This document shows positions 50,963-63,783 of a stretch of 64,000 bases of DNA, piece after piece. Under the pieces are notes generated by a model, which worked only from the letters and a program-made list of their open reading frames with translations, searched no databases and had not been told where the DNA came from. The stretch lies in the NCBI RefSeq assembly GCF_054482525.1, contig NZ_CM137006.1. The stretch is one strand, 5' to 3'. Numbering within the stretch: position 1 is the stretch's first letter; each line of letters begins with the position of its first letter. Made by a program: the position numbers and the translations under genes.

Positions 50963-51174
50963 CTTATTGATTTAAATGGTGCGATAATAGGAATATAACA
51001 CACCACATATATTCTTTGATAAATATGACTATTTTCTTGTTTCATCTTTATAAATGCCCCCTTTTGTGCCCCCACCTTGTTTTTCATGCGACTCGATGAG
51101 ACTTTCATCGAGTCGTTAATCTCATCAAATTCTTCACGTATCGTGGAAACCTTCGCAGATCTCCATCCCCTCAC
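50953..51174 (-). CDS. Hypothetical small protein coupled to the toxin gene
   Basis: 73-aa ORF whose ATG overlaps the toxin stop (ATGA). Confidence 0.3.
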
Positions 51175-51539
51175 AGCCGTGATCGGCTAAGAACAATATT
51201 ACTTACCTCCCTGTAAGAACACCGGCTCATCAGCCCGCACGCTTTCCTGGCTTGAAGAATGTCTGTCGCAGTCAAATATGGTGCTTGTACCTGAGAGGTA
51301 AATCCATTGCGATCAATACGAACTAACTCATATTTCTCTACCAGAAAGTTAACGGCATTAGCCAGAGTGATACCGGCATCGATATGCTCCTTTATAACGG
51401 TTTCATCGCTAAAAGGTGTGTCGCTTAGCATTAGGCCATAGTGCTGCTCAAGCAGACGAGTAAGTAACATTTGCCAGATTGCAACGGGCGACAGACAGGG
51501 CTTCGCCGCCCGCGAAATTGTAGCAGGTAGATTTTTCAT
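51171..51539 (-). CDS. CbtA/YeeV/YkfI-family toxin (cytoskeleton-targeting type IV TA toxin)
   Basis: [36 protein letters not shown]... is collinear with CbtA; ATGA overlap with the antitoxin stop. Confidence 0.85.
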
Positions 51540-51877
51540 GTTTGCTCTCGTGAAATTTGTTTGCGCTGAGGGGGATAAATGGCGATGTATACGTAGCCGC
51601 AACTACCAAGGGTATCGGCTTCGCAGGTGAAACCGTTGTGGTACAGGGTGACACAGTGGGCATGGCGGGGATTCATTTCACCAGTGGTCAGCATCGATTC
51701 CATCTGACTGATAAAATGTGGAAATACGACATCCAACTTCAGGCTTTCGGCATCACTAAACTTACCGGTGATACTTGCCCGGTCAGCCAGATAGTGCAGC
51801 CGGTTGCCCTCCTGCACCAGACGTGCTCCCAGGCACGGCGTGATATCCCGCTGCAGGCCCCATGTGGGGTTGCTCAT
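51536..51877 (-). CDS. CbeA/YeeU/YfjZ-family antitoxin
   Basis: ...[20 protein letters not shown]...[10 protein letters not shown] matches the YeeU family. Confidence 0.85.
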
Positions 51878-51894
51878 TTATAACCTCTTTATTG

Positions 51895-52116
51895 TCAGTT
51901 CAGGGTAATACTCACCAGACAGGTATAAGGTCCGTTGCGATCCTGGCGGCGTTCGACGTATACCGCCAGCACACTGGAAATGTCAGGAACCACCTTAACG
52001 GTGTATTGACAGACACTGCCATGCCACTGGTATCTGCCAGTGCAGAATCGAACAATGCGGGAGGCCGGATGCTGACGGTAAATCGTCATCGCCAGGCGTT
52101 TACTGATAATTTTCAT
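51895..52116 (-). CDS. DUF987 protein (YeeT/YkfH family)
   Basis: MKIISKRLAMTIYRQHPASRIVRFCTGRYQWHGSVC... Confidence 0.75.
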   Translation of the reverse strand: MKIISKRLAMTIYRQHPASRIVRFCTGRYQWHGSVCQYTVKVVPDISSVLAVYVERRQDRNGPYTCLVSITLN

Positions 52117-52124
52117 GTAATACC

Positions 52125-52604
52125 TCAAAGCAGACCATGTTCAGCGAACGACAATATCTGCGTACCACCGACGATAAGGTGGTCGAGCACCCGGATCTCC
52201 ACCAGCATCAGTGCATGTAACAGTCGTTGAGTGATAGCCTTGTCGGCCTGGCTTGGAGTCACTTCTCCGGACGGGTGGTTATGGGCAAATATCACCGCCG
52301 CCGCATTAAAGTACAGCGCGCGTTTCACCACCTCGCGAGGATGAACCTCAGTGTGACTGATGGTGCCGGTAAAGAGCGTTTCGTGGGCAAGCAGCTGGTT
52401 CTGGTTATTGAGGTACAACACGACAAACACTTCGCGCTCAAGGGGGCCCATTTTCAGCCTGAGCCAGTCGCGGGCAGCCTGAGTCGAGGTGAATGCCACA
52501 CCCGGTTCTAGCAAGTGCTGGTCAAGCAGAACCAAGGCTCGCTTAATGGTACGCAGTGCTGGTAACGGCAGTTCAGGTGTAAACATAGTCAGTTGTTTCG
52601 CCAT
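52125..52604 (-). CDS. RadC-like JAB-domain protein (YeeS/YkfG/YfjY family)
   Basis: HNHPSGEVTPSQAD JAMM-like motif. Confidence 0.85.
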   Translation of the reverse strand: MAKQLTMFTPELPLPALRTIKRALVLLDQHLLEPGVAFTSTQAARDWLRLKMGPLEREVFVVLYLNNQNQLLAHETLFTGTISHTEVHPREVVKRALYFNAAAVIFAHNHPSGEVTPSQADKAITQRLLHALMLVEIRVLDHLIVGGTQILSFAEHGLL

Positions 52605-53032: not shown

Positions 53033-54230
53033 TGATCCTACCCGCGTAATGTGGACACGCTCCTAAGCGAGATTCTGGTTTTCAAACTGTTTCGGGCTGA
53101 GGCCGCCATAATCGCTGTGACGCCGCCAGCGATTGTAATCGCACTTAATCCGCCGTCCGCATGATTTCCCGGCTGATAAAGCGTTCTCCGTGGATACACT
53201 CGACTTTTAACGAGTGTAAGAAGCTTTCCGCACAGGCATTATCATAACAGCAACCTTTTGCGCTCATGCTGCCATGCAGATTATGTCGTTTCAGCAGAGC
53301 CTGATAATCCGCTGAGCAGTACTGCCCGCCACGGTCGGTGTGAATTCGCCGCCACAGCGCCATCTGCAGTGCATCACAGGCAAGTTCTGCCGTTATTTGC
53401 GAGGACACCAACTAGCCAATAATAGCACGCGACCACCAGTCTATAACCACGGCAAAGTATAACAAGCTTTCATCGATGCGAAGGTACGTGATGTCACCAG
53501 CCCACTTCTGGTCCGAGCCACTAGATCTGAAGTCCTGCTTCAGCAGATTCTCCGGCACTGGCTGGTCGTGAGCACAGTAGATTAACGGGCTGAACAGACG
53601 TGAGGTTTTTGCCCGCAGGCCCTGACGACGCGAACTGTTGCTATCGTTTTGATGTTGTATTCCGGCGGCTCGTCTGCAAGACGAGCCGCACCATAACGCT
53701 GTTTTGCCTCAACGAATACCTTACAGACAGCTTCATTGAAGACGCACCGGAACTGTTGCCGATGGCTCAGTTGGGGACGACGCAGACACCAGGTATACCA
53801 GCAGCTGTGCGCCACGCACAGCACCCGACACATAGCTTTGATACTGAACTCAACCTGATATTTTTCGATAAAGATATACTTCATTTCAGGCGCTACGCGA
53901 AGTATGTCGCGCCCTTTTGGAGAATAGCCAACTCATTATCCCGCTCAGCCAGTTGACGTTTGAGGCAGGCAATCTCCGCTGCTTGTGCGCTCTCTCTCAG
54001 AGGATATTGTCTGGTGCAGTTGTTTGTAGAGCTGGGAATCGTAAAGGCTGAGTTCACGGGCGGTAGTGGCCACACCGAGACGTTCGGCCAACTTAAGGGC
54101 TTCTTCACGAAATTCAGGCGTGTGTTGTTTGCGTGACTTTTGTTGATTGATGCTGATTTTGTCATGTGAGCTACCTCTGATTGAGAGTTTACTCGCTTAG
54201 TCCCGTGTCCACTATTGGTGGGTAGGATCA
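53033..54230 (-). mobile_element. Degraded IS3-family insertion sequence (IS3-like) with frameshifted orfA/orfB
   Basis: Terminal inverted repeats TGATCCTACCCGCGTAATGTGGAC (left) and TGATCCTACCCACCAATAGTGGAC (right, reverse complement); minus-strand ORF fragments match IS3 InsE (…[23 protein letters not shown]) and InsF (MKYIFIEK..., ...[14 protein letters not shown]...CCYDNA...), split by frameshifts; no target-site duplication. Confidence 0.8.
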
Positions 54231-54579
54231 TTATTGATCAAAGATCAAGATGTGCAAAAATTCCCAAGTAAAGCCTTATCTGAACCTTCCGTTTTGTTAG
54301 CACATCTGACATTATTATTCAGTCAAATCCCTTCAGTTGATTGAGTTCAAAGGCGGTAGCTATGCTGATTTGCATTACTGTAAAACTTTTAAAGCAGAGG
54401 TTTATATAGAATTGCTCTGTTGAATAAATTAGTAGGTTCACATGGATTTTGAGTTCACCAAGCATGACAACTTGCGTTCTTCAAGCGATCCTGAGAAGCC
54501 TATTATATTAGTGTACAAGATGCCTCACGTGGCACCACTGAATTTTACATTAGACTCTATCCATTAAAACGATAAAATT

Positions 54580-56313
54580 ATGTACATAGCAAAAATTAAA
54601 TTTACAAATTTCAAATCATTCAAAGAGATGTCTTTTGAGTGCAATGATAAATTCAACATAATTGTTGGTGAAAATAATATTGGTAAAAGCACATTATTTG
54701 AGGGGGTAAGTTTATGGAAATATGCTTATGACAACCTTATTCAAGAAAAAAACAAAAACAAATTCTACAAAGCTTCAACTAACTACTACATTACCTATTC
54801 TACACTCGATCAAATAAGACTTGTTGACGATATTGATATTTTTAACGACCCAAAGAATAGCTCCGCATCAATATGCATTACAATTAAAGATGAACAAAAT
54901 GAATTTGATTTAGAGATTAGATTTGAAAAGCCAGGGATTAAAAATTCATACTTACGGATATTTAATAGCAATGGTTCTGATAATGACACACAGTTTTCAA
55001 ACTTTGAACGATTCTCAAACTATATAAAAGAAAAGGATTGCACTCTAAAAGATGCCATTTACATTTACCAAACAAGACCAATATCAACTATTTTTAGAGA
55101 TGAGCCATTTTACAATAATGCGCAGATAGAGAAAAAAATAAATATTGGAAAGTCACATGATGTCTTAAGGAATAAAATATTAAAAACCGAAAATACTCAA
55201 GCCACAAGGGTTGCACAAAAATTTGAAAATCTTGAGATTCGCCTACAAAAAGTCCTTGGTGAAAACTATATCTTAAAATTTAAGAATAGAAATCGAATCG
55301 ATGATGAGTATGTTAAAATAACTGCAACAAAGGAAAACGGGAAAGAATTGGAAATATCACTTATGGGTAGTGGTTTTTTGCAAGTCTTAGAGATATTTTC
55401 AACAATTGAGTATATGGAAAAGAATTCAACCGGTATTAACCTCATTCTTATCGATGAGCCTGATTCACATATCCACTCAAATTTACAAGCAAATTTAATT
55501 GACGAACTAAAGCAACAAACAGCATGTCAAATTTTTGTCATAACACATAATGACAGACTAACATCAAAAGCTAATGAAGGTGAGCTTTTTTATCTAAATC
55601 AGATAGTTAAGGATCTTGGTTTATTGTCTCACCTTGAAATATCTGATTATTCAAAAGTTAAAGATGGTCTAGCTAATGTACTAACAGCTATAAATGATGG
55701 AGATGAAACACCCATTGTTATAACTGAAGGAAAAACGGACCAGAAAATTTTAACAACTGCTTGGGAAAAGCTAAACCCAGGAACTCCTATGCCTTTTAAA
55801 ATAATTTCATCCGGCATTCAAATTGAAGAGGAAAAAAGAACTGGGTGCGCAGAGGCAGTTAGAAGATCTTTAGAATACATTTCAACATTAACTGATAGAA
55901 CAATTATCGGTTTATTTGATAATGATCGGGAGGGAAATGAGCAGTTCAAAGGATTAAATCGTTCTATTTTTGAACCTCATGACCTGCAAAATAACTCCCG
56001 AAAACATCAGATAAAAAATATCTATGGGCTTATTCTTCCCGTTCCTGTGCATAGAGAACGTTTTGTACAAAACAATTCTTTAACGCAGCGTTACTTCGTA
56101 ATTGAACAATATTTCCAAGATGAAATATTACTACAGCATAACATGAAAGGTGAGTCAATATTAGGTACTGAGGTATTTTTTGTTAATGACTCAAGAAAGA
56201 ATGAGTTTTCAGAGTCAACCAATGACCTTCCGGTAGAATGCTTTGGGGATTTTAGTATTTTATTCGATAAAATTTCCGATTTATTGGCTAACAATAGACC
56301 AGAAAACACTTGA
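54580..56313 (+). CDS. OLD-family protein: N-terminal ABC-type ATPase fused to a C-terminal TOPRIM nuclease-like domain (P2 Old / Gabija GajA / PARIS-like); candidate anti-phage defense protein
   Basis: 577 aa; Walker A GENNIGKST (aa 30-38), Walker B LILIDEPD (aa 288-295), H-loop ITHND; TOPRIM-like ITEGKTD (E383) and FDNDREG (D447, D449); strongly AT-rich codon usage. Confidence 0.7.
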   Translation: MYIAKIKFTNFKSFKEMSFECNDKFNIIVGENNIGKSTLFEGVSLWKYAYDNLIQEKNKNKFYKASTNYYITYSTLDQIRLVDDIDIFNDPKNSSASICITIKDEQNEFDLEIRFEKPGIKNSYLRIFNSNGSDNDTQFSNFERFSNYIKEKDCTLKDAIYIYQTRPISTIFRDEPFYNNAQIEKKINIGKSHDVLRNKILKTENTQATRVAQKFENLEIRLQKVLGENYILKFKNRNRIDDEYVKITATKENGKELEISLMGSGFLQVLEIFSTIEYMEKNSTGINLILIDEPDSHIHSNLQANLIDELKQQTACQIFVITHNDRLTSKANEGELFYLNQIVKDLGLLSHLEISDYSKVKDGLANVLTAINDGDETPIVITEGKTDQKILTTAWEKLNPGTPMPFKIISSGIQIEEEKRTGCAEAVRRSLEYISTLTDRTIIGLFDNDREGNEQFKGLNRSIFEPHDLQNNSRKHQIKNIYGLILPVPVHRERFVQNNSLTQRYFVIEQYFQDEILLQHNMKGESILGTEVFFVNDSRKNEFSESTNDLPVECFGDFSILFDKISDLLANNRPENT

Positions 56314-57088
56314 TACTGTACTGCATTTTCCATATCGAGCTAAAACGGACCATTCGCTTTTAAAGTGATTACGGCATACGGGACAGATTTTCCTTAAAGC
56401 AAACGTCTCCTTCACGCCCTGAGACATTCGACATTAAGTAAGAACGGGGGTGCGCCTCGAGTGCCAGCAAATATTTTGCTTCGTCGTAGCGGGTTCTGGT
56501 CATCCAGCAGCTGTAAATGATCCTTATCCATTTATACGCCAGAGCCCAAATGGCTGATTGATGCGATTTTCCTTTTCTTCGCAGCTCTTACTAATAAAGT
56601 CTGGCCCAGAATGATGAGTTAATCGTCTTTGCAGCCCATTCCACGAATGTCTGTCGGACGAGCTCCGCACATTGCCAACATCAGTGTACCCAAGATTTCT
56701 GGCCGCTTTGTTCTGTCACCGGAAAAATACCTGCGTAGTTTTGAATTTCTTCAGCGCAGTTTAACTGGTCACGGTTACTTGAAGAAAGAAACTGACCACT
56801 GCGCTCGTCGTTCGGAAGTGCCAGGGCTATCGGTGGATATTAAGGGAAACCTGACAGCCGGAGGTAATCAGGGTTATTAATGCCGTCAGTGTGGGCCCCG
56901 CTACCAGTGAAACACTAATGTATTGATTAAGTTTCATATTCTTCCTTAATGAAAATAAGCATGTTTTCTTTTGCTAAATCAGTCGTCGTTGGCGATGAAA
57001 CCGGCTCACACATCACGCGATTGTTAAATGAAAAAGCCCCTATTGCGTGAGCAACAGGGGCTATATTTATTTTGTGTCTATAGAGGCA

Positions 57089-57499
57089 TCAGTAACCAGT
57101 TTTAACCTTGTACATCAATAGTGTTTTACTGCCCCGGACAATTTTCACATACAGGGCATTATCTTTCGTGCCTCGCACAAAACCGGCCTGCACATCGCCC
57201 TTACAGTCACCACCGTCGTAAGGAATATTGACACCTGTCTGACGCACCAGATCAATAACCCCGAAGCTTAAGTCCTCACAGGCCGGGCCCGGCAGGTCCT
57301 GAATCAGGGCAAATTTATGGTCGTCGCTGACACCGGTCAGTGAGCACATGGAGGTATTGATGTCGTTTCCCTGGCACCAGTACTCCTGACCGGGATTATC
57401 TTTATCCATCAGACTTGCCGGAAGCTGAGCGGCACCGGCACTGAAGGCGGCAAGTGACAGAATGAGGGCGGGTACAGCAGAGGTCATTATTTTCAGCAT
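57089..57499 (-). CDS. Secreted 4-Cys protein of unknown function (island-associated)
   Basis: Signal peptide MLKIMTSAVPALILSLAAFSAGAA; motif W-C-x9-C...C...C. Confidence 0.6.
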   Translation of the reverse strand: MLKIMTSAVPALILSLAAFSAGAAQLPASLMDKDNPGQEYWCQGNDINTSMCSLTGVSDDHKFALIQDLPGPACEDLSFGVIDLVRQTGVNIPYDGGDCKGDVQAGFVRGTKDNALYVKIVRGSKTLLMYKVKTGY

Positions 57500-57565
57500 G
57501 GTTTTCTTCCTGAATTAATCCAGCCCGCTGTCGGGCAAAATGAGGGAGGTTGGTATCGGGTATTA

Positions 57566-58003
57566 TCAGAAGCGCCGGTAGCGAAACAGCTCTTTGCCCT
57601 GGTAAAGTGCCACCAGGTCGTCATATTCCGGCTTCTTCTGGTTGGGCTTAAAGGTCACTACCGTGCCCGGACGGCACAGATCTTTTACGGTGAGACCGAA
57701 TTTCCTATCCGGAGTAATGGTGAATCCCTTCGACACATCGTTGTGCATGATAGTTATCCAGCCCCACAGGCCGCCTTCGCAGTCCTTAAAGGGTGCTGAA
57801 CGAACTGTTACCATCCCACCCAGGCGGTCAACAGACATGGCTTCACATTTTCCGGTAACCTGTCGATGCGCATCACACCAGAAAATATTCCCGTTGTTGT
57901 CATTGACGACTGCAGGTAGCGTTCGGTTATAAGGCTGAGCCTGAGCGCCCACACAGAGCAGAAGGCTGCCGGTAATACCCAGTACTTTAATCAGTGTTTT
58001 CAT
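57566..58003 (-). CDS. Secreted 4-Cys protein, paralog of the 57089-57499 gene
   Basis: Start at MKTLIKVLGITGSLLLCVGAQA; same W-C-x9-C...C...C spacing. Confidence 0.55.
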   Translation of the reverse strand: MKTLIKVLGITGSLLLCVGAQAQPYNRTLPAVVNDNNGNIFWCDAHRQVTGKCEAMSVDRLGGMVTVRSAPFKDCEGGLWGWITIMHNDVSKGFTITPDRKFGLTVKDLCRPGTVVTFKPNQKKPEYDDLVALYQGKELFRYRRF

Positions 58004-58044
58004 TACGTTGGTCCTTAACAGAGAAAGAATCAGGTAGCAGTCAT

Positions 58045-58581
58045 TCAGGCCCAGACGGTCAGGCCCAGCATCAAAAGCCATACCCAGAAGTAAGCCGGTT
58101 TCTGACCGAGAGTTTTCGCCCGCCGCCACAAATAGAACGGCACCAGCCAGGCCAGTTTGCCGAACGTGGTAGTGTCCACTCCGGCCTTACGAAGGCGTCG
58201 TTCATCGAGATACCCCAGAGCGATATTGAGCAGCAGCGTGATAAACCAGTACTGCCCACCCGAGACGGCATCATATGCCTCGTCAAATGACATCCCGCTC
58301 AATCCTGCAGTCCACAACTCCAGCGCGTAGCCAATGAAGGGAGCAAATGCAAGCGTCCACACAACGCCACCCGGAATGCGGTTCCCCGTCAGCGCTGGCG
58401 GTGTGGTGCTGTGGAGCAGCGCCGAAGCCAGCGGGGTGGCGGAGACCGGTTGCCAGTCCGGCATGCCCTGTCGCCACACCAGCGTGGCAGCGGTGAGTTC
58501 ACCGCGCTTAATCAGGTTAGTGATGTCGTCTTCGGTCACATTGTCGTGACGTATGCCATTTTTCTCGTAATGCCAGGTCAT
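58045..58581 (-). CDS. Membrane protein with N-terminal GYF-like (DUF4339-like) domain
   Basis: WHYEKNG...ATLVWRQGMPDWQPV then 3-4 hydrophobic helices. Confidence 0.5.
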   Translation of the reverse strand: MTWHYEKNGIRHDNVTEDDITNLIKRGELTAATLVWRQGMPDWQPVSATPLASALLHSTTPPALTGNRIPGGVVWTLAFAPFIGYALELWTAGLSGMSFDEAYDAVSGGQYWFITLLLNIALGYLDERRLRKAGVDTTTFGKLAWLVPFYLWRRAKTLGQKPAYFWVWLLMLGLTVWA

Positions 58582-58606
58582 TGTTTTTCCTTCTTAACAG
58601 AGGTAA

Positions 58607-59317
58607 TTAAATCAGTGTATTGCCATGCTCCTCCTCAGAGGGCCCATGAGACAGGACTTCGCGAATACAGCTGAAGTGCGGAAGAGCCCGAATAAAGCCC
58701 GCCTGTGTGGTTAACTGGCTGAGACGTTTTCGCGGGGTAAAAGTGGTGTTCAGGACTGTCACCGCATGGATGGTCGCCAGAGGGTGCACAGTGATATGCC
58801 CGTTAAGTTCACCGGTGAGGTACCAGCAGCCGTCGAGTGATATCAGGCGGTACGGAGCCAGCCCGTCACAGCGCTCTCCCTCGGCCAGCAGCAGTACCCG
58901 CTGGCAGGCGGTAATGGCACTGACGAGACGGTAGAACACCAGTGAGATGGTCGGTGACACAGACTGTGGCGGCTGCCATACCAGACACGGCATCCCTCCC
59001 GCAGTGAGCAACATGCCCGCCAGACGCCGGTCCAGCCCCGGAAAAATATCGGCCAGTCCGGCCCGGTGTGCGAAGGTCAGCGCATCAAGCTCCCCCTGTA
59101 CGCCCCCACCGGTGCTGCGCAGGCGGCATTGCCCCCGTCGATACTCAAGGTCGAGGTACATCAGCCGTTCGCGAAAATCCCGTCGCAGGGTACGGACTGA
59201 CACACCAAACTCTGCAGCCAGCCGCGCCATGTTCAGCGTTTCACCGGCAACCAGGCGGCTGATTATCAGTGACAGCCTGACAGCCAGCCGGTCATGACGG
59301 CGATCTGCCTGTGTCAT
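58607..59317 (-). CDS. YfjR-like HTH transcriptional regulator (DeoR-like)
   Basis: N-terminal HTH LNMARLAAEFGVSVRTLRRDF; position relative to the yfjP/yfjQ-like genes. Confidence 0.6.
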   Translation of the reverse strand: MTQADRRHDRLAVRLSLIISRLVAGETLNMARLAAEFGVSVRTLRRDFRERLMYLDLEYRRGQCRLRSTGGGVQGELDALTFAHRAGLADIFPGLDRRLAGMLLTAGGMPCLVWQPPQSVSPTISLVFYRLVSAITACQRVLLLAEGERCDGLAPYRLISLDGCWYLTGELNGHITVHPLATIHAVTVLNTTFTPRKRLSQLTTQAGFIRALPHFSCIREVLSHGPSEEEHGNTLI

Positions 59318-59525
59318 CTTAAATCTCCGTAATAATTAACTGACTGAATATGAAATGATTCTAAAGAGGGGGGCGGACAGGGTATGGACACGGAATGAAC
59401 TATTTTTTATCTGCCACCGGAAGCAGGTCTGACGCGGTGCTCCGTGAAATACGATGAAAAAACACCCAATCAAATGGAGGTAAAACGGACAGGGAGTGTC
59501 CTTTCCCAACATACTGATAACAAGC

Positions 59526-60365
59526 TCAGGACTGAAATCCACTCAACATCGCTTCTGCCATCACCCAGAGAGCCCGGTTGAGCTTCACATCTCCGTCGAT
59601 ACCACGCACGGCGCGGGTATGCGTTCGCCCGCCTTTCGCACTCCGACCACTGAGCCCGCCCTTAATCAGGTTCTCCTGAATACGCTGATATGTGGTCCAC
59701 AGATCATTGCTCTCATCCTGCCAGCGGCGTGGGGAGAGTATCTGAGGTGCTGTCACTGGCTGGTGGTCCTCACCGAAACGGTACGTCAGTGCAGCCTGTG
59801 CCAGAGCCTGTTGTGCAGGTGGCGGCAGCATCAGCGACTGCATGGCATCCCGCTTCTCTTCCACACGGTCAAAAATACCCAGTACTTCATACGCCCCCTC
59901 AATCACCTGACTCACAACATCTCCTTTGTGCGGCACACGCACCTCGCCAAACGACTCACCGCAGACAAGCCCGTTCTGGCATACCGCGCGGAATAATCCC
60001 GGCAGCATCTGATACGAGCTGGTGCCGTCATGAGAGTTGAGCAGAATGATTTCCGGGACTTGCTTGCCGGTAATTTGCCCCTCCCGACGCAGGCGCAGCA
60101 TGTGCTTTGTGTGGTCGCGGCGACCTGGGTCACGCACTCTGGTCTGACAGGCAAAGAAGGGCTGAAAGCCTTCGCGCTGCAGACTGTCGAGGAGAGAAAT
60201 CGTGGGTATATATGTGTACCGTTCACTGCGAGATTCGTGTTTGTCCTCGCTGAAAACACTGGGCACTACACGAAATAGCTCTTCGCGGGTTAACGGACGG
60301 TCACGACGGATAAGATTTGATGCGCCAAAGCGCGAAGCCAGACGGGTCATAAGCAGACTCCTCAT
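59526..60365 (-). CDS. YfjQ/YafZ-like protein (DUF932/UPF0380-like)
   Basis: 279 aa; island synteny yfjP-yfjQ-yfjR; family assignment from memory. Confidence 0.5.
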   Translation of the reverse strand: MRSLLMTRLASRFGASNLIRRDRPLTREELFRVVPSVFSEDKHESRSERYTYIPTISLLDSLQREGFQPFFACQTRVRDPGRRDHTKHMLRLRREGQITGKQVPEIILLNSHDGTSSYQMLPGLFRAVCQNGLVCGESFGEVRVPHKGDVVSQVIEGAYEVLGIFDRVEEKRDAMQSLMLPPPAQQALAQAALTYRFGEDHQPVTAPQILSPRRWQDESNDLWTTYQRIQENLIKGGLSGRSAKGGRTHTRAVRGIDGDVKLNRALWVMAEAMLSGFQS

Positions 60366-60445
60366 GATGGGAAAATAAAGACAGAAAAGCCCTACCGCTC
60401 AATCGCGGCAGGGCTCAGGAAACTACGGGTTAGAAGGGTTAATGT

Positions 60446-61309
60446 TCAGAAGAAGAAGTTCCAGACTGCACGAGCGACCGATACCACGATGTCGCGTACA
60501 GACTGGATGACAGTCCGAACCGGGGACGGTATCAGGGGCATGGAACTTACTGTATCCAGTACCGAGCCGACCGTTTCACCAAAATCGTCGCGGGCTTTTT
60601 TATTAATGGCATCGGTACGAAGTGGATCACTAAGCTGTACCGCCACCGGACTACTGGCCTCCCGCGGCAGGCAATGAATCATCCGTTCAGCCATTACCCG
60701 CAGCCCCCATTGCAAACGTACCGACACCGCACAGACAGGGTTAACAGGTTGGAACAACTCATGCAGTAGACAGATTTTGCGGCTGATATTTTGTTTCTGC
60801 TCTGTAGACAGCTTTTCACCACCGCTGGTGGGTTCAACCTTGTCGGACTGACTGATAACAAACAACACCTTATGCCGGTATGCTTCACCAATCACCTGCA
60901 GGTAAAAATGTTCATCCACCGCTAGTGCTCGATCATCGGCCTTAATCAGCCACAGTACCAGATCGAGTTGCGTCAGTTGCTGGCGATACATCGCAGCATA
61001 TTCCGCATCACGACTTTTGCTTTCACCGACACCGGGCAGATCTACTATGGTCATAAAGCGTTCGCCAACTTGCAGGCGAAAGCGCAAAGGTTCGCGTGTG
61101 CAGGCGCTCACATCGCTGACCGGAGAGATTTTTCCGGCAAACAGCGCATTACAGAGTGATGATTTACCCGACCCGGTTTTCCCCATAATGCCGATCACCG
61201 GCTCATAGTGAGTAAGCTGGTTTACCTGTTGCAGAATACGCTCTGATGCCCACTGCGGCAGGCCAGAAAGCGATTGCTGCAGCGACTGCAAACCTTCAGA
61301 TTTTTTCAT
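60446..61309 (-). CDS. YfjP/YkfA-family GTPase
   Basis: G1 motif GKTGSGKSS, G3 DLPG, SQSDK; start at MKKSEG preceded by GAGGA. Confidence 0.8.
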   Translation of the reverse strand: MKKSEGLQSLQQSLSGLPQWASERILQQVNQLTHYEPVIGIMGKTGSGKSSLCNALFAGKISPVSDVSACTREPLRFRLQVGERFMTIVDLPGVGESKSRDAEYAAMYRQQLTQLDLVLWLIKADDRALAVDEHFYLQVIGEAYRHKVLFVISQSDKVEPTSGGEKLSTEQKQNISRKICLLHELFQPVNPVCAVSVRLQWGLRVMAERMIHCLPREASSPVAVQLSDPLRTDAINKKARDDFGETVGSVLDTVSSMPLIPSPVRTVIQSVRDIVVSVARAVWNFFF

Positions 61310-61431
61310 CACGGTTCCTCTGAAATAAAAAAAACGGCAGAACAATGGAGTTCAGCCGTTAATGAGGTATGTTCAGGGTAATGATATATATCTGTTTCTT
61401 TTTCAGATAAACCCGCGCAATCGATTAGAGA

Positions 61432-62490
61432 TCAGGAATGCGCCCTGACTTTTTCTGTTTTTACCATTAATCCGGCATACTCACGTTCAATAAGTGAGGA
61501 CATTAAATCTGACTCAGACTCACCATATATTTCTGACAGTCTGGCGAGTTTCTTTTTAGTTCTGGCTGAAATTTTTATTGTCATATCGTTCTCTTTAGAC
61601 TGTCTGCGAAACAGTTTCTGATCCCAGGCTTTTTGCAGTTCACCCATCAGGACTGCTTTATGTCGCAGGGGAGAGCGCGGAAGCGTCAGTAAATCAGCGA
61701 AGTTCTGACTCATTTTTTTTCGATTTCCCTTTAAATAACTCAGTTGCTCATGAGTCCAGCCCTCCCACTGATCAAAAGTAGCACAAATAAAAAGCCAGCG
61801 TTGATAGTTATTCAGCGGATTTATCGGAGGGCAAACCGCCTTCTTTTTCATCAGGTTCCATACCCACAAGCACTGTTTTTCATCATTGATATCCAGCCAT
61901 GAAAAAGCTTCAGGAAAGTCACCACAGGCCTGTCCCCATGCAGTATTTATTGCTTTTATTAGCTTGCGCCGGGTTTCAGTTTCTGCATCACAGAGTTCTC
62001 TTAATACACACTCAAAAACATCATCAACTCCAGTTGCCATTTCCCTCATGAATGGTGAGTAAATCCCATTGGCGTAATAAAAATCTGGCGGCATCATCTT
62101 TTTTGGAGTGGACATTTTACCCAGGGTTGATTTTTCAGAAGCTGATTCAAGGTTTGTGTTTAATATGTTTTCTAACAGCTCATCACCTTCATAACCCTTA
62201 CCTTCATTTGTTTGATTAAAATTAAATTCTGGCATCATTCCTGGAAGTGTTGCTGCTTTATTTTTTTCAATACTTAGCTCAATTGACTCCGTCCCCAGAG
62301 CCCTAGCAGATATCTGACTGGGTTCGTCTATATGATCCTGGCGAACAACTGCTGACCTCCACTCACTCAGAAAACGAGCAATATAGAAAAAATAGAAACA
62401 TGCGGCACGGGGATTTTTATCAAGCCACCTCAGCTTCTTTTTTAATAACTTGTATTTTTCTTGAGCGCCCAGCGCCTTCTCTTTGCTCAT
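61432..62490 (-). CDS. Hypothetical protein (352 aa), no recognisable motifs
   Basis: Long ORF with a Lys-rich N-terminus, upstream of the GTPase on the same strand. Confidence 0.5.
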   Translation of the reverse strand: MSKEKALGAQEKYKLLKKKLRWLDKNPRAACFYFFYIARFLSEWRSAVVRQDHIDEPSQISARALGTESIELSIEKNKAATLPGMMPEFNFNQTNEGKGYEGDELLENILNTNLESASEKSTLGKMSTPKKMMPPDFYYANGIYSPFMREMATGVDDVFECVLRELCDAETETRRKLIKAINTAWGQACGDFPEAFSWLDINDEKQCLWVWNLMKKKAVCPPINPLNNYQRWLFICATFDQWEGWTHEQLSYLKGNRKKMSQNFADLLTLPRSPLRHKAVLMGELQKAWDQKLFRRQSKENDMTIKISARTKKKLARLSEIYGESESDLMSSLIEREYAGLMVKTEKVRAHS

Positions 62491-63466
62491 TATTCACCCA
62501 GATTCAGTTTCCATTAATGATGTCATTATGATGTAAAACCATAGGCAATCAACAGGAAAAAATGTAATTTCAAGAGTGAGTAATGATGAATCAATGTATT
62601 TTTTTCGTAGTAGATTCGTAGTAAGATATCGCGTGGCAAAACACTAATTATCAACAGGTTGTAAGTGCTCCCTTCCTCAGACTACCATTACCAATATGGG
62701 ACTGCAGTATGAAGACCCTGGCATGTGAAGTTAAACAACAACGACATGACATTCGTGATGTTGCCATGCGTTGGGGAGTGCAAATCAAACGACCTGCGTC
62801 ATTCCTTCATCAGGATTTCTGCTACCCTGATAGGGTCAGCACCTCCGCACACTTCGTGACAATCGCAACATCAGATGACACCCGATGCGATTGCTGATAT
62901 CGCATTCGTGTTGTTTTCGATAATTAAGGTTAATTAATAATATAGTGCATAGTGCCTGCCCTTTCTCATCCATGCCCCATTTTACCCTTGGACCGTGTTT
63001 CAACATATTTACATTCAGTACCTGTTTCTCCACGCGCTATCTTCCCTGCAAAAAAAAACAGTACCAGGCAATCCTTTGAGCAAAAACCAAAGGATTACTG
63101 AAATACAAAAACACTACCCATCTTTCCAGAATATTATCCCTGATGATTGCCTTCTCAACATGATTAATCACCACCTTAATCAGATGCTGGAACGTTACTC
63201 AAAGATTCTGGCTTTTCGCATGGACTTCAGTTACCGGAAAGGAATCAATAGGTATATCCGTAATTCCGCCCTTGAAATATAGGATGTTCTTCGCGAGTTA
63301 ATGCCATCCATTTTAACCAAAGATGCGTCTGTGGCTGTTTTTGGGCGTTAGAATGGACAAGAGAAGGTGCAGTGCACTCACATGCCATTTTTTATATCAA
63401 TGGACAAAATCATAAGAAATCATTCCCTTTTGTACTGGAGGCAAAAAGCATGTGGTTAAAAATCTC

Positions 63467-63490
63467 GAAGGAAGAAGGAAGAAGGAAGAA
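63467..63490. repeat. Tandem 7-bp purine repeat GAAGGAA x about 3.4
   Basis: GAAGGAAGAAGGAAGAAGGAAGAA in the non-coding stretch upstream of alpA. Confidence 0.7.
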
Positions 63491-63783
63491 TAAAATGGTG
63501 TCCGGCGGATAGTTATCACAGGGATACTATAAACAGAATAGTGGAATAAAAAAATGAGGTTGATGTGCAGAGTTTGAGACGGATAGCCAGCTATCAGACA
63601 AAAGAAGACCAGAAATATGGATTACCAATATGGGGATACAACGAAATTAATTTGCCCGCCAGACAGGGCAGACCGAGGAAGTTTAGTTAGTTTTTTACAG
63701 CAGCACCGGTTGCTATGCCGGAGTGGGTAGTAGTAATTCATCACTGGACTCCGGTACTTATTTAGCTACCGGAGAATCAAATC

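Follow-up and report, generated by a model that had tools for sequence, protein, structure and literature searches.

The Escherichia coli K-12 islands CP4-57 (yfjP-yfjQ-yfjR-ypjK-yfjS-yfjT ... yfjX-yfjY-ypjJ-yfjZ-ypjF) and CP4-6 (ykfA-yafZ-...-ypjK-yafY-ykfB-ykfF-yafX-ykfG-ykfH-yafW-ykfI) carry a GTPase gene, a DUF932 gene and a regulator gene in the same order and orientation, together with a RadC-DUF987-CbeA/CbtA tail. They belong to a family of integrative islands characterized by a P4-type integrase, insertion at a tRNA gene and AlpA, and yfjQ, yafZ, ypjK, yfjS and yfjT were still listed among the y-ome genes in 2024 (PMC11551758). Here we analyzed a run of seven minus-strand genes at positions 57089 to 62490 of a 64,000-nucleotide stretch of contig NZ_CM137006.1 (NCBI RefSeq assembly GCF_054482525.1), hereafter the window. 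The run encodes a 352-aa protein, a GTPase, a DUF932 protein, a regulator with helix-turn-helix (HTH) and WYL domains, a GYF_2 protein and two exported proteins with four cysteines (4-Cys). An initial annotation had named these genes as a conserved module without assigned function, possibly a single conflict or maintenance system. Our results show that the run is a conserved, uncharacterized backbone of an island of the CP4-6/CP4-57 type, and it very probably consists of three separately transcribed units: a ribbon-helix-helix (RHH)-like protein with the GTPase, the DUF932 gene, and an HTH-WYL operon.

Positions 57000 to 62600 of the window match the chromosome of E. coli SCU-102 (NZ_CP051753.1) with 100% identity, and in the annotated record of this strain the island is inserted at tRNA-Thr beside proA, the site of CP4-6 in K-12. 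From the tRNA gene inward, the island encodes a tyrosine integrase, a SLATT protein, a nucleoid-associated protein, a GTP pyrophosphokinase, DprA and a RecQ helicase, followed by an inovirus-Gp2-family protein, a zinc-ribbon protein, a hypothetical protein and AlpA. Then come the seven genes, all present in the window and annotated by PGAP in the SCU-102 record, a transposase fragment, an ATP-dependent OLD-type nuclease, a broken IS3 and finally RadC, DUF987, a CbeA-type antitoxin and the CbtA toxin. A CP4-type backbone is identified by the P4-type integrase at a tRNA gene, the upstream AlpA and the downstream RadC-DUF987-CbeA-CbtA genes (PGAP, Pfam). In the window, its tail occupies 51171..52604 on the minus strand (PGAP, Pfam and synteny across 80 loci), with RadC at 52125-52604, DUF987 at 51895-52116, CbeA at 51536-51877 and CbtA at 51171-51539, and an IS3/OLD-nuclease insertion at 53.0-56.9 kb parts it from the seven-gene run. 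Defence cargo and a toxin-antitoxin module do adjoin the run, as had been noted before, but the CbeA/CbtA module is not a separate neighbour; it is the tail of the same conserved backbone.

Compared with the K-12 islands, the window differs in the slot that follows the regulator, which holds YpjK/YfjS/YfjT in K-12 and the GYF_2 protein with two 4-Cys proteins here; apart from the signal-peptide region, no similarity between the two sets was found by BLAST or hhalign. It also differs upstream of the GTPase gene, where the K-12 islands have cargo and the window has the RHH-like gene, and in that DUF905 and the antirestriction gene are missing, with the IS/OLD-nuclease insertion in their place. 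The island backbone is thus familiar but uncharacterized; new here are the envelope cassette unlike that of K-12 and the extra RHH-like gene. On present evidence, this is not a new kind of system.

The seven genes had been described as co-oriented and tightly spaced. Co-orientation holds throughout, while tight spacing applies to the regulator, GYF_2 and the two exported-protein genes, which are separated by 25, 41 and 66 bp; the gaps between the 352-aa and GTPase genes, the GTPase and DUF932 genes, and the DUF932 and regulator genes measure 122, 95 and 208 bp, respectively. In three of the seven genes, the start codons follow PGAP and Prodigal-type calls rather than the longest open reading frames (ORFs), which places the start of the GTPase at 61309 (not 61345), that of the DUF932 protein at 60350 and that of the first exported protein at 58003 (not 58129). 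The 95-bp gap contains a strong terminator-like hairpin (60387..60416, minus strand; 12-bp stem with 8 G-C pairs and a T-run), the 208-bp gap contains conserved promoter-region sites, and another terminator-like hairpin (57035..57062, minus strand; 12-bp stem, T-run) is located 3' of the last exported-protein gene. Since its gaps are only 25-66 bp as against 95-208 bp elsewhere, the stretch from the regulator to the second exported protein is the only operon-like part. The division into three units is based on the terminator-like hairpins together with the distribution of the genes. Sequence inspection additionally revealed an 11-bp inverted repeat (61333..61360, minus strand) in the gap that separates the 352-aa gene from the start of the GTPase.

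To describe this distribution, one genome per species was scanned with the GTPase alignment, which yielded 80 loci, nearly all from named Enterobacterales; they were annotated with hidden Markov models (HMMs) built from the window and K-12 proteins, and downstream genes were counted in the 59 loci with at least 6 kb 3' of the GTPase. DUF932 was found downstream in 44 of these and the WYL regulator in 40, with both in 32 and neither in 7; DUF932 occurred without WYL in 12 loci and WYL without DUF932 in 8. RadC, CbeA and CbtA were each present in 37 of the 59 loci and the antirestriction gene in 30. Three gene orders recur: GTPase-DUF932-WYL-envelope genes-(DUF905)-antirestriction-RadC-(DUF987)-CbeA-CbtA-(DUF4942); GTPase-WYL-envelope genes-DUF932-antirestriction-RadC and so on; and, in Providencia and Proteus, GTPase-antirestriction-DUF932-WYL-4TM protein-two signal-peptide proteins. 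The place of DUF932 with respect to the regulator is therefore variable, and DUF932 tends to accompany the antirestriction/RadC group. In rearranged loci as well, L089 and L091 among them, the GTPase, WYL and exported-protein genes are still neighbours. Some piece of the GTPase-DUF932-regulator stretch occurs in 5199 of 5426 complete E. coli genomes, with a median of 5 and a maximum of 21 matching places per genome, and the partial matches listed were all to DUF932. The contiguous triad is present in 571 of these genomes, which confirms its reported recurrence. The co-occurrence analysis that the initial annotation had proposed thus supports recurrent linkage, but DUF932 is also widespread on its own.

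The ratio of nonsynonymous to synonymous substitution rates (dN/dS), determined against copies from Citrobacter, Yersinia, Photorhabdus, Buttiauxella and Enterobacter, was 0.03-0.19 in all genes but the 352-aa gene, indicating that these six genes are under purifying selection and are working rather than decaying prophage remnants.

The YfjR-like regulator (236 aa; 58607..59317, minus strand; PGAP and profiles) is 58% identical to YfjR, in agreement with the initial annotation. It matches HTH_DeoR at 3e-4 and the PADLOC WYL model over positions 1-218 of 229 at 2e-19, while the Pfam WYL match reaches only 0.2. Its two parts evolve differently. The HTH part (residues 1-62) is 77-98% identical even where the GTPase identity is about 51%, and 52-63% in the clades furthest removed. 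For the C-terminal part, identity is at least 66% wherever the cassette of GYF_2 and both exported proteins is complete and 89-90% in two close relatives with a truncated or replaced cassette, but only about 41-51% beside every other recognized cassette type, even where the GTPases are 87-88% identical. This pattern suggests that sensor domain and cassette largely move together.

Two sites lie in the promoter region of the regulator, a palindrome GGACA-N5-TGTCC (59487..59501, minus strand), identified by its conservation as a candidate distal operator, and a direct repeat TGTCC-N6-TGTCC (59375..59390, minus strand), which precedes the regulator ATG by about 55 bp and is a candidate proximal operator or promoter element. 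In five divergent loci, the conserved bases of both sites do not change although the flanks do, and the exact pattern of each occurs once in the 64-kb window (expectation for the palindrome, 0.05). Across 1.45 Mb of loci, the palindrome has 38 matches, and for 32 of 54 WYL genes a match lies no more than about 300 bp upstream; the direct repeat has 37 matches and is found upstream of 34 of the 54, and both sites precede 29. Their presence does not depend on which gene, DUF932 or the GTPase, precedes the regulator, and they are missing only where the HTH part has diverged. A reading of 59487-59501 as the terminator hairpin of the DUF932 gene was rejected; as the palindrome tracks the WYL gene whatever lies upstream, we read it as a promoter-region site. 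We infer that both TGTCC sites are candidate operators of the regulator. With its N-terminal HTH and WYL domains, its place as the first gene of the operon that it presumably controls and the repeat sites in its own promoter region, the protein resembles BrxR/CapW, PafBC and DriD. However, at 236 aa it is too short for the C-terminal WCX domain of the BrxR type and, in contrast to BrxR/CapW, the genes downstream of it encode envelope proteins that match no PADLOC defence model.

The first gene after the regulator encodes a GYF_2 (DUF4339) protein (58045..58581, minus strand; PF14237 at 1e-12, residues 3-50) with relatives only in Enterobacterales. Its C-terminal half is hydrophobic by hydropathy analysis and it is predicted to reside in the inner membrane, in line with the initial annotation as a GYF membrane protein. 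It is followed by exported protein A (SecA; 145 aa, beginning MKTLIK; 57566..58003, minus strand) and its distant paralogue, exported protein B (SecB; 136 aa; 57089..57499, minus strand), both with a signal peptide. The mature cysteines are C43/C53/C75/C110 and C42/C52/C74/C99, respectively, and the motif W-C-x9-C-x21-C is common to both. Their similarity is weak by BLASTP (26% over 62 aa, E 8e-5) and clear by hhalign (94% probability, E 1.3e-7, 106 columns), and both match PHROGs 8968 and 17072, so that the earlier description as paralogous secreted proteins is borne out. In the Yersinia and Hafnia loci, the SecA family is represented by "Y157". A hand alignment had hinted at a Cys pair common to the K-12 envelope proteins and the 4-Cys proteins, which was not upheld by hhalign; YfjS and YfjT were accordingly rejected as distant 4-Cys relatives, the SecA-YfjT match (77%) covering the signal-peptide region alone and YfjS remaining below 20%.

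Small exported or membrane proteins are a constant feature of this position. Of 68 loci, 59 have an ORF for a small signal-peptide or membrane protein in the 3.5 kb that follow the GTPase, and such ORFs account for 37% of the downstream but only 12% of the upstream genes when both are scored by one crude predictor (p 5e-18). The families occupying the slot occur in mixed combinations and include YpjK/YfjS/YfjT, GYF/SecA/SecB, J204, Y157 (the SecA family), P154 (related to YfjT) and 4TM proteins; some cassettes, such as Y157+YfjT and J204+YfjS, consist of signal-peptide proteins only, without a membrane protein. Even backbones that are nearly identical can carry different cassettes.

Relatives of the exported proteins were also found in phages. 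Full-length homologues of SecB with 34-53% identity are encoded by lytic jumbo phages of Erwinia, Salmonella, Proteus and E. coli, whereas SecA has weak jumbo-phage matches, the best being a gene of E. coli phage EC001 adjacent to the SecB homologue. Coordinates were compared in this one phage (164877-165612), and the adjacent pair shows that the SecA/SecB tandem is not peculiar to islands. Both exported paralogues are almost absent from plasmids, with SecB on only 2. The phage 4-Cys homologues, carried by lytic jumbo phages of about 240 kb (for example Erwinia phage ChrisDB, 168005-168409, locus L097), are full-length including the signal peptide, and in EC001 the 4-Cys genes sit within a run of small hypothetical genes.

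The GTPase (287 aa; 60446..61309, minus strand; MMR_HSR1) is 82% identical to YfjP and 79% to YkfA, confirming its description as YfjP-like. The motifs GKTGxGKS (G1), ACTR, DxPGVGE and xQxDK are invariant in an alignment spanning 40-87% identity, and the conserved C-terminus is hydrophobic or amphipathic and ends in W-x-F-F-F. Its best PDB and NCBIfam matches are Era and Der, all far below equivalog cut-offs, and its motifs place it in the Era/Der-like class of TRAFAC GTPases, with predicted GTP binding and hydrolysis. Homologues occur on 75 plasmids. Small mobilisable plasmids such as the 5.9-kb ColE1-type plasmid NZ_CP051752.1 of E. coli SCU-301 (L009) carry a 40%-identical member of this GTPase family downstream of an EcsC-family gene and a gene for a 144-aa hypothetical protein, a minimal context that might help to find GTPase partners.

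Upstream of the GTPase, the first backbone gene (61432..62490, minus strand; called as an ORF) is divergent from alpA and encodes a 352-aa protein with a variable helical N-terminal part, a Trp-rich core and a C-terminal RHH-like segment at about residues 308-345. The protein, initially listed as an unknown, has no match in Pfam or NCBIfam; it has a predicted RHH-like C-terminus and a conserved position. Its relatives form a small family of 19 clusters. In 25 of the 80 species loci, an iterated HMM search detected a relative at a distance of 40-156 bp upstream of the GTPase, and in three further loci cargo sits between the two genes. A 29%-identical Yersinia relative and a 41%-identical relative on a metagenomic contig each have the GTPase on one side and a divergent alpA on the other (L012, L015). 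An alignment of 21 members shows a conserved C-terminal segment of RHH-like type, and the family profile gave weak but consistent PDB matches on this segment (best E 0.0077, the rest 0.08-1.9), the best of them (E 0.008-1.5) mostly to RHH proteins, among them ORF56, SvtR, CopG-family regulators, CopG and MatP; Pfam RepB-RCR_reg was touched by three members at 0.005-0.1. An AlphaFold2 model from an 11-sequence alignment reached a pLDDT of 47, too poor for a fold search, with two C-terminal helices at about 77. The 352-aa protein is thus fast-evolving and positionally linked to the GTPase, and has a predicted RHH-like C-terminus. The impression from megablast that its gene is strain-specific cargo was ruled out by the positional conservation seen in protein-level and HMM searches. 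No similarity to the 352-aa protein was seen in the 377-aa gene that precedes the GTPase of Plesiomonas.

The DUF932 protein (274 aa; 59526..60350, minus strand; PF06067) is an orthologue of YfjQ/YafZ, to which it is 94-96% identical, as had been recognized, and it matches PHROG 12094 at 1e-124. The family is large, with 5444 representative clusters and AFDB50 matches with TM of at least 0.9. Structure prediction, which the initial annotation had suggested for this protein and the 352-aa protein and which was unusable for the latter, gave a confident DUF932 model (pLDDT 95), and no convincing match to it was found among solved structures. A relationship to sugar 3,5-epimerases (phmmer E 3e-4, residues 197-260) was rejected because these residues are mostly helical in the model. 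A 67%-identical homologue is present on at least 5000 plasmids, 88% of them conjugative. In F and IncF plasmids of E. coli and Klebsiella it is located in the leading region, within about 1 kb of traM/oriT, and adjoins an SLT transglycosylase gene; AFDB names for the relatives include "F plasmid protein 32-like" and "Gene 32 protein". Similar to the island backbone in other loci, the F leading region ("protein 32", DUF905, antirestriction, ssb, psiB, hok/sok) holds DUF905 and antirestriction genes of the same families, and a toxin-antitoxin element is found in both settings. The GTPase and SecB, in contrast, are carried by few plasmids. Our literature search on DUF932, the yfj/ykf genes, yubP/orf273 and leading regions returned no functional study of these genes and no function assigned to the "protein 32" gene. 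It was also observed that the DUF932 gene and its Citrobacter copy (L016) have a dS of 0.03, whereas that of the neighbouring genes is 0.2-0.6; this low value and the many copies in E. coli look like recent recombination or gene conversion among copies.

From these results we propose a tentative explanation, one we consider plausible without calling it probable, that blends the three-unit organization with an exclusion function of the envelope proteins. In the first unit, the fast-evolving RHH-like protein would pair with the Era-like GTPase; there is no good analogy for this pair, which may serve the island's own life cycle. In the second, the DUF932 protein would work with the downstream DUF905, antirestriction, RadC, DUF987 and CbeA/CbtA genes, a group that, by analogy with plasmid leading regions, might help the element to establish itself and stay in the cell. 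In the third, the regulator would bind the two TGTCC sites in its own promoter region and autoregulate the operon, and its WYL domain may respond to a nucleic-acid-derived signal, as in PafBC, DriD, BrxR and CapW. The cassette, here a GYF_2 membrane protein and two putatively disulfide-bonded periplasmic paralogues, would then be expressed and, at the inner membrane and in the periplasm, could hinder incoming DNA, as in superinfection or entry exclusion. T4 Imm (membrane) and Sp (periplasmic), TraS/TraT, Eex and MbeD are exclusion proteins that likewise combine small inner-membrane proteins with exported proteins or lipoproteins on mobile elements, a likeness of architecture only. This architecture, the relatives in lytic phages, the swapping typical of conflict genes and the nucleic-acid signals of WYL proteins elsewhere are the reasons for suggesting a WYL-controlled envelope exclusion mechanism, which taken by itself we regard as possible rather than probable.

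Several observations weigh against this mechanism. No experiments or annotated homologues that tie the proteins of the run to exclusion were found, and the profile, PADLOC and PHROG searches revealed no sequence similarity to the named exclusion proteins. PHROGs 8968 and 17072 are families without known function. PADLOC-DB 2.0 reported no known defence system at the run, only the generic WYL model and weak matches of the GTPase to LeoBC/LeoA (1.7e-6, 2e-4). Deletion of yfjP or yfjR in K-12 caused no marked phenotype in one screen (bioRxiv 10.1101/2021.04.10.439273). The co-variation of the WYL C-terminus with the cassette could be produced by physical linkage, that is, adjacency, alone. In the E. 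coli island variant of loci L098-L101, no called WYL gene or small GTPase lies within 7 kb upstream of the GYF gene. For the second unit, ssb, psiB, a ParB-like gene, relaxase or oriT were not identified in the island, where no search was aimed at relaxase or oriT, and the leading-region analogy is therefore one of shared gene families only.

The strongest competing explanation, which we consider doubtful but a serious one, is that the slot accommodates host-beneficial surface or envelope cargo for adhesion, aggregation or envelope stress, with the WYL protein as a local regulator and without any role against incoming DNA. The Ag43/Cah autotransporter gene directly follows the WYL regulator in Citrobacter, Buttiauxella and Enterobacter loci (L021, L029, L038); these cases speak in favour of the surface-cargo reading, although they fit it no worse and no better than "exclusion" when set against the cassette as a whole, and selection within a cassette type is purifying rather than diversifying; moreover, ykfB of K-12 is driven by a FliA promoter inside yafY (PMC4183435). 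Such cargo would not explain why small exported proteins of several families almost always occupy the slot, nor the tandem homologues in strictly lytic jumbo phages, for which host adhesion brings no advantage. WYL regulators are, in addition, typically linked to DNA-damage or defence circuits. The exclusion mechanism can also be extended to a version in which the GTPase, the HTH-WYL regulator and the interchangeable envelope proteins form an unrecognized exclusion system widespread in Enterobacterales islands, jumbo phages use 4-Cys effectors for their own superinfection exclusion, and DUF932 is a leading-region protein with a new fold that acts on incoming DNA; we regard this extension as unlikely. 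Alternatively, the operon could be an abortive-infection or toxin-like module, in which a derepressed small membrane protein, such as the GYF_2 protein or YpjK of K-12 (78 aa, Gly/Ala-rich and very hydrophobic), damages the membrane and the periplasmic proteins modulate it. A small hydrophobic protein does follow the regulator in many loci, but the many cassettes of signal-peptide proteins only and the lack of toxicity reports in the literature searched make this improbable.

Equally improbable is the single conflict or maintenance system of the initial annotation, with the GTPase as motor or switch, DUF932 and the regulator as partners and the envelope proteins as effectors. The shared orientation, the loci with both DUF932 and WYL, the E. 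coli genomes with the contiguous triad and the persistent GTPase/WYL/exported-protein adjacency would agree with it. However, terminator-like hairpins separate the units, DUF932 changes position between clades and occurs independently on thousands of plasmids as compared with the 75 carrying the GTPase, and it is found without WYL, WYL without it, or neither, in a sizeable share of loci; in addition, the cassette swaps beside nearly identical GTPases, and PADLOC recognizes no such system. A narrower proposal concerns the RHH-GTPase pair, which might act in the segregation of the excised circle or in the control of excision or transfer; it is compatible with our tentative explanation for the other two units, and we judge it rather unlikely in this specific form. 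RHH centromere-binding proteins paired with NTPases offer an analogy, and the conserved adjacency beside alpA, the RHH-like C-terminus and the purifying selection in "cryptic" islands (measured for the GTPase and the five genes after it) are consistent with it. In contrast, Era-like GTPases are not known as partition motors, many islands, including CP4-57 and CP4-6 of K-12, keep the GTPase without a recognizable 352-aa relative, and GTPase homologues on 5.9-kb ColE1-type plasmids have other partners, EcsC and a hypothetical protein.

Most E. coli genomes contain these genes, often more than once, and among them are K-12 y-ome genes that have remained functionless for decades. The three-unit split replaces a vague island module with an RHH-GTPase pair, a leading-region homologue and a WYL operon with a defined candidate operator and an exchangeable envelope cassette. 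If the cassette does exclude phages or plasmids, it would represent a defence layer missed by current tools and would explain the same proteins in jumbo phages, and if DUF932 acts during DNA entry, this would bear on the establishment of IncF resistance plasmids. Should none of the proposed functions hold, the region is the ordinary backbone of a familiar island family.

Several further features of these islands were observed. The position of Ag43 directly after the regulator in L021, L029 and L038 raises the question whether the WYL protein controls Ag43 there. The variant of L098-L101, common in E. coli, contains genes for Ag43, a 794-aa dynamin-like protein, YjcZ, a patatin, a 57-aa ORF, GYF_2 and a 137-aa gene and continues with DUF932-antirestriction-RadC-DUF987-CbeA-CbtA-DUF5983-DUF4942. 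In the window, the OLD-type ATP-dependent nuclease (577 aa; 54580-56313, plus strand), with an ATPase and a DxD/TOPRIM-like C-terminus, lies in a patch of 34% G+C and interrupts the backbone between the exported-protein genes and RadC. It is flanked by insertion sequence fragments at 53038-54231 and about 56.4-56.8 kb and has no adjoining partner gene, and its best PADLOC matches are the NsnB, GajA and AriAB models.

No Rfam family was matched in the 50-64 kb part of the window. The 1.3 kb between the 352-aa gene and alpA (62491-63783) contain no convincing gene; weak HMM matches in two frames at about 63157-63412 correspond to consecutive parts of the inovirus-Gp2/YfjJ family and suggest a degraded remnant, and an intact Gp2-type gene is found at this position in other loci. 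Beyond the right end of the window (L001, 26785-37618) lie two groups of candidate defence cargo, one with a SLATT protein, a nucleoid-associated protein and a GTP pyrophosphokinase of the RelA/SpoT type, and the other with a RecQ-family helicase gene overlapping dprA.

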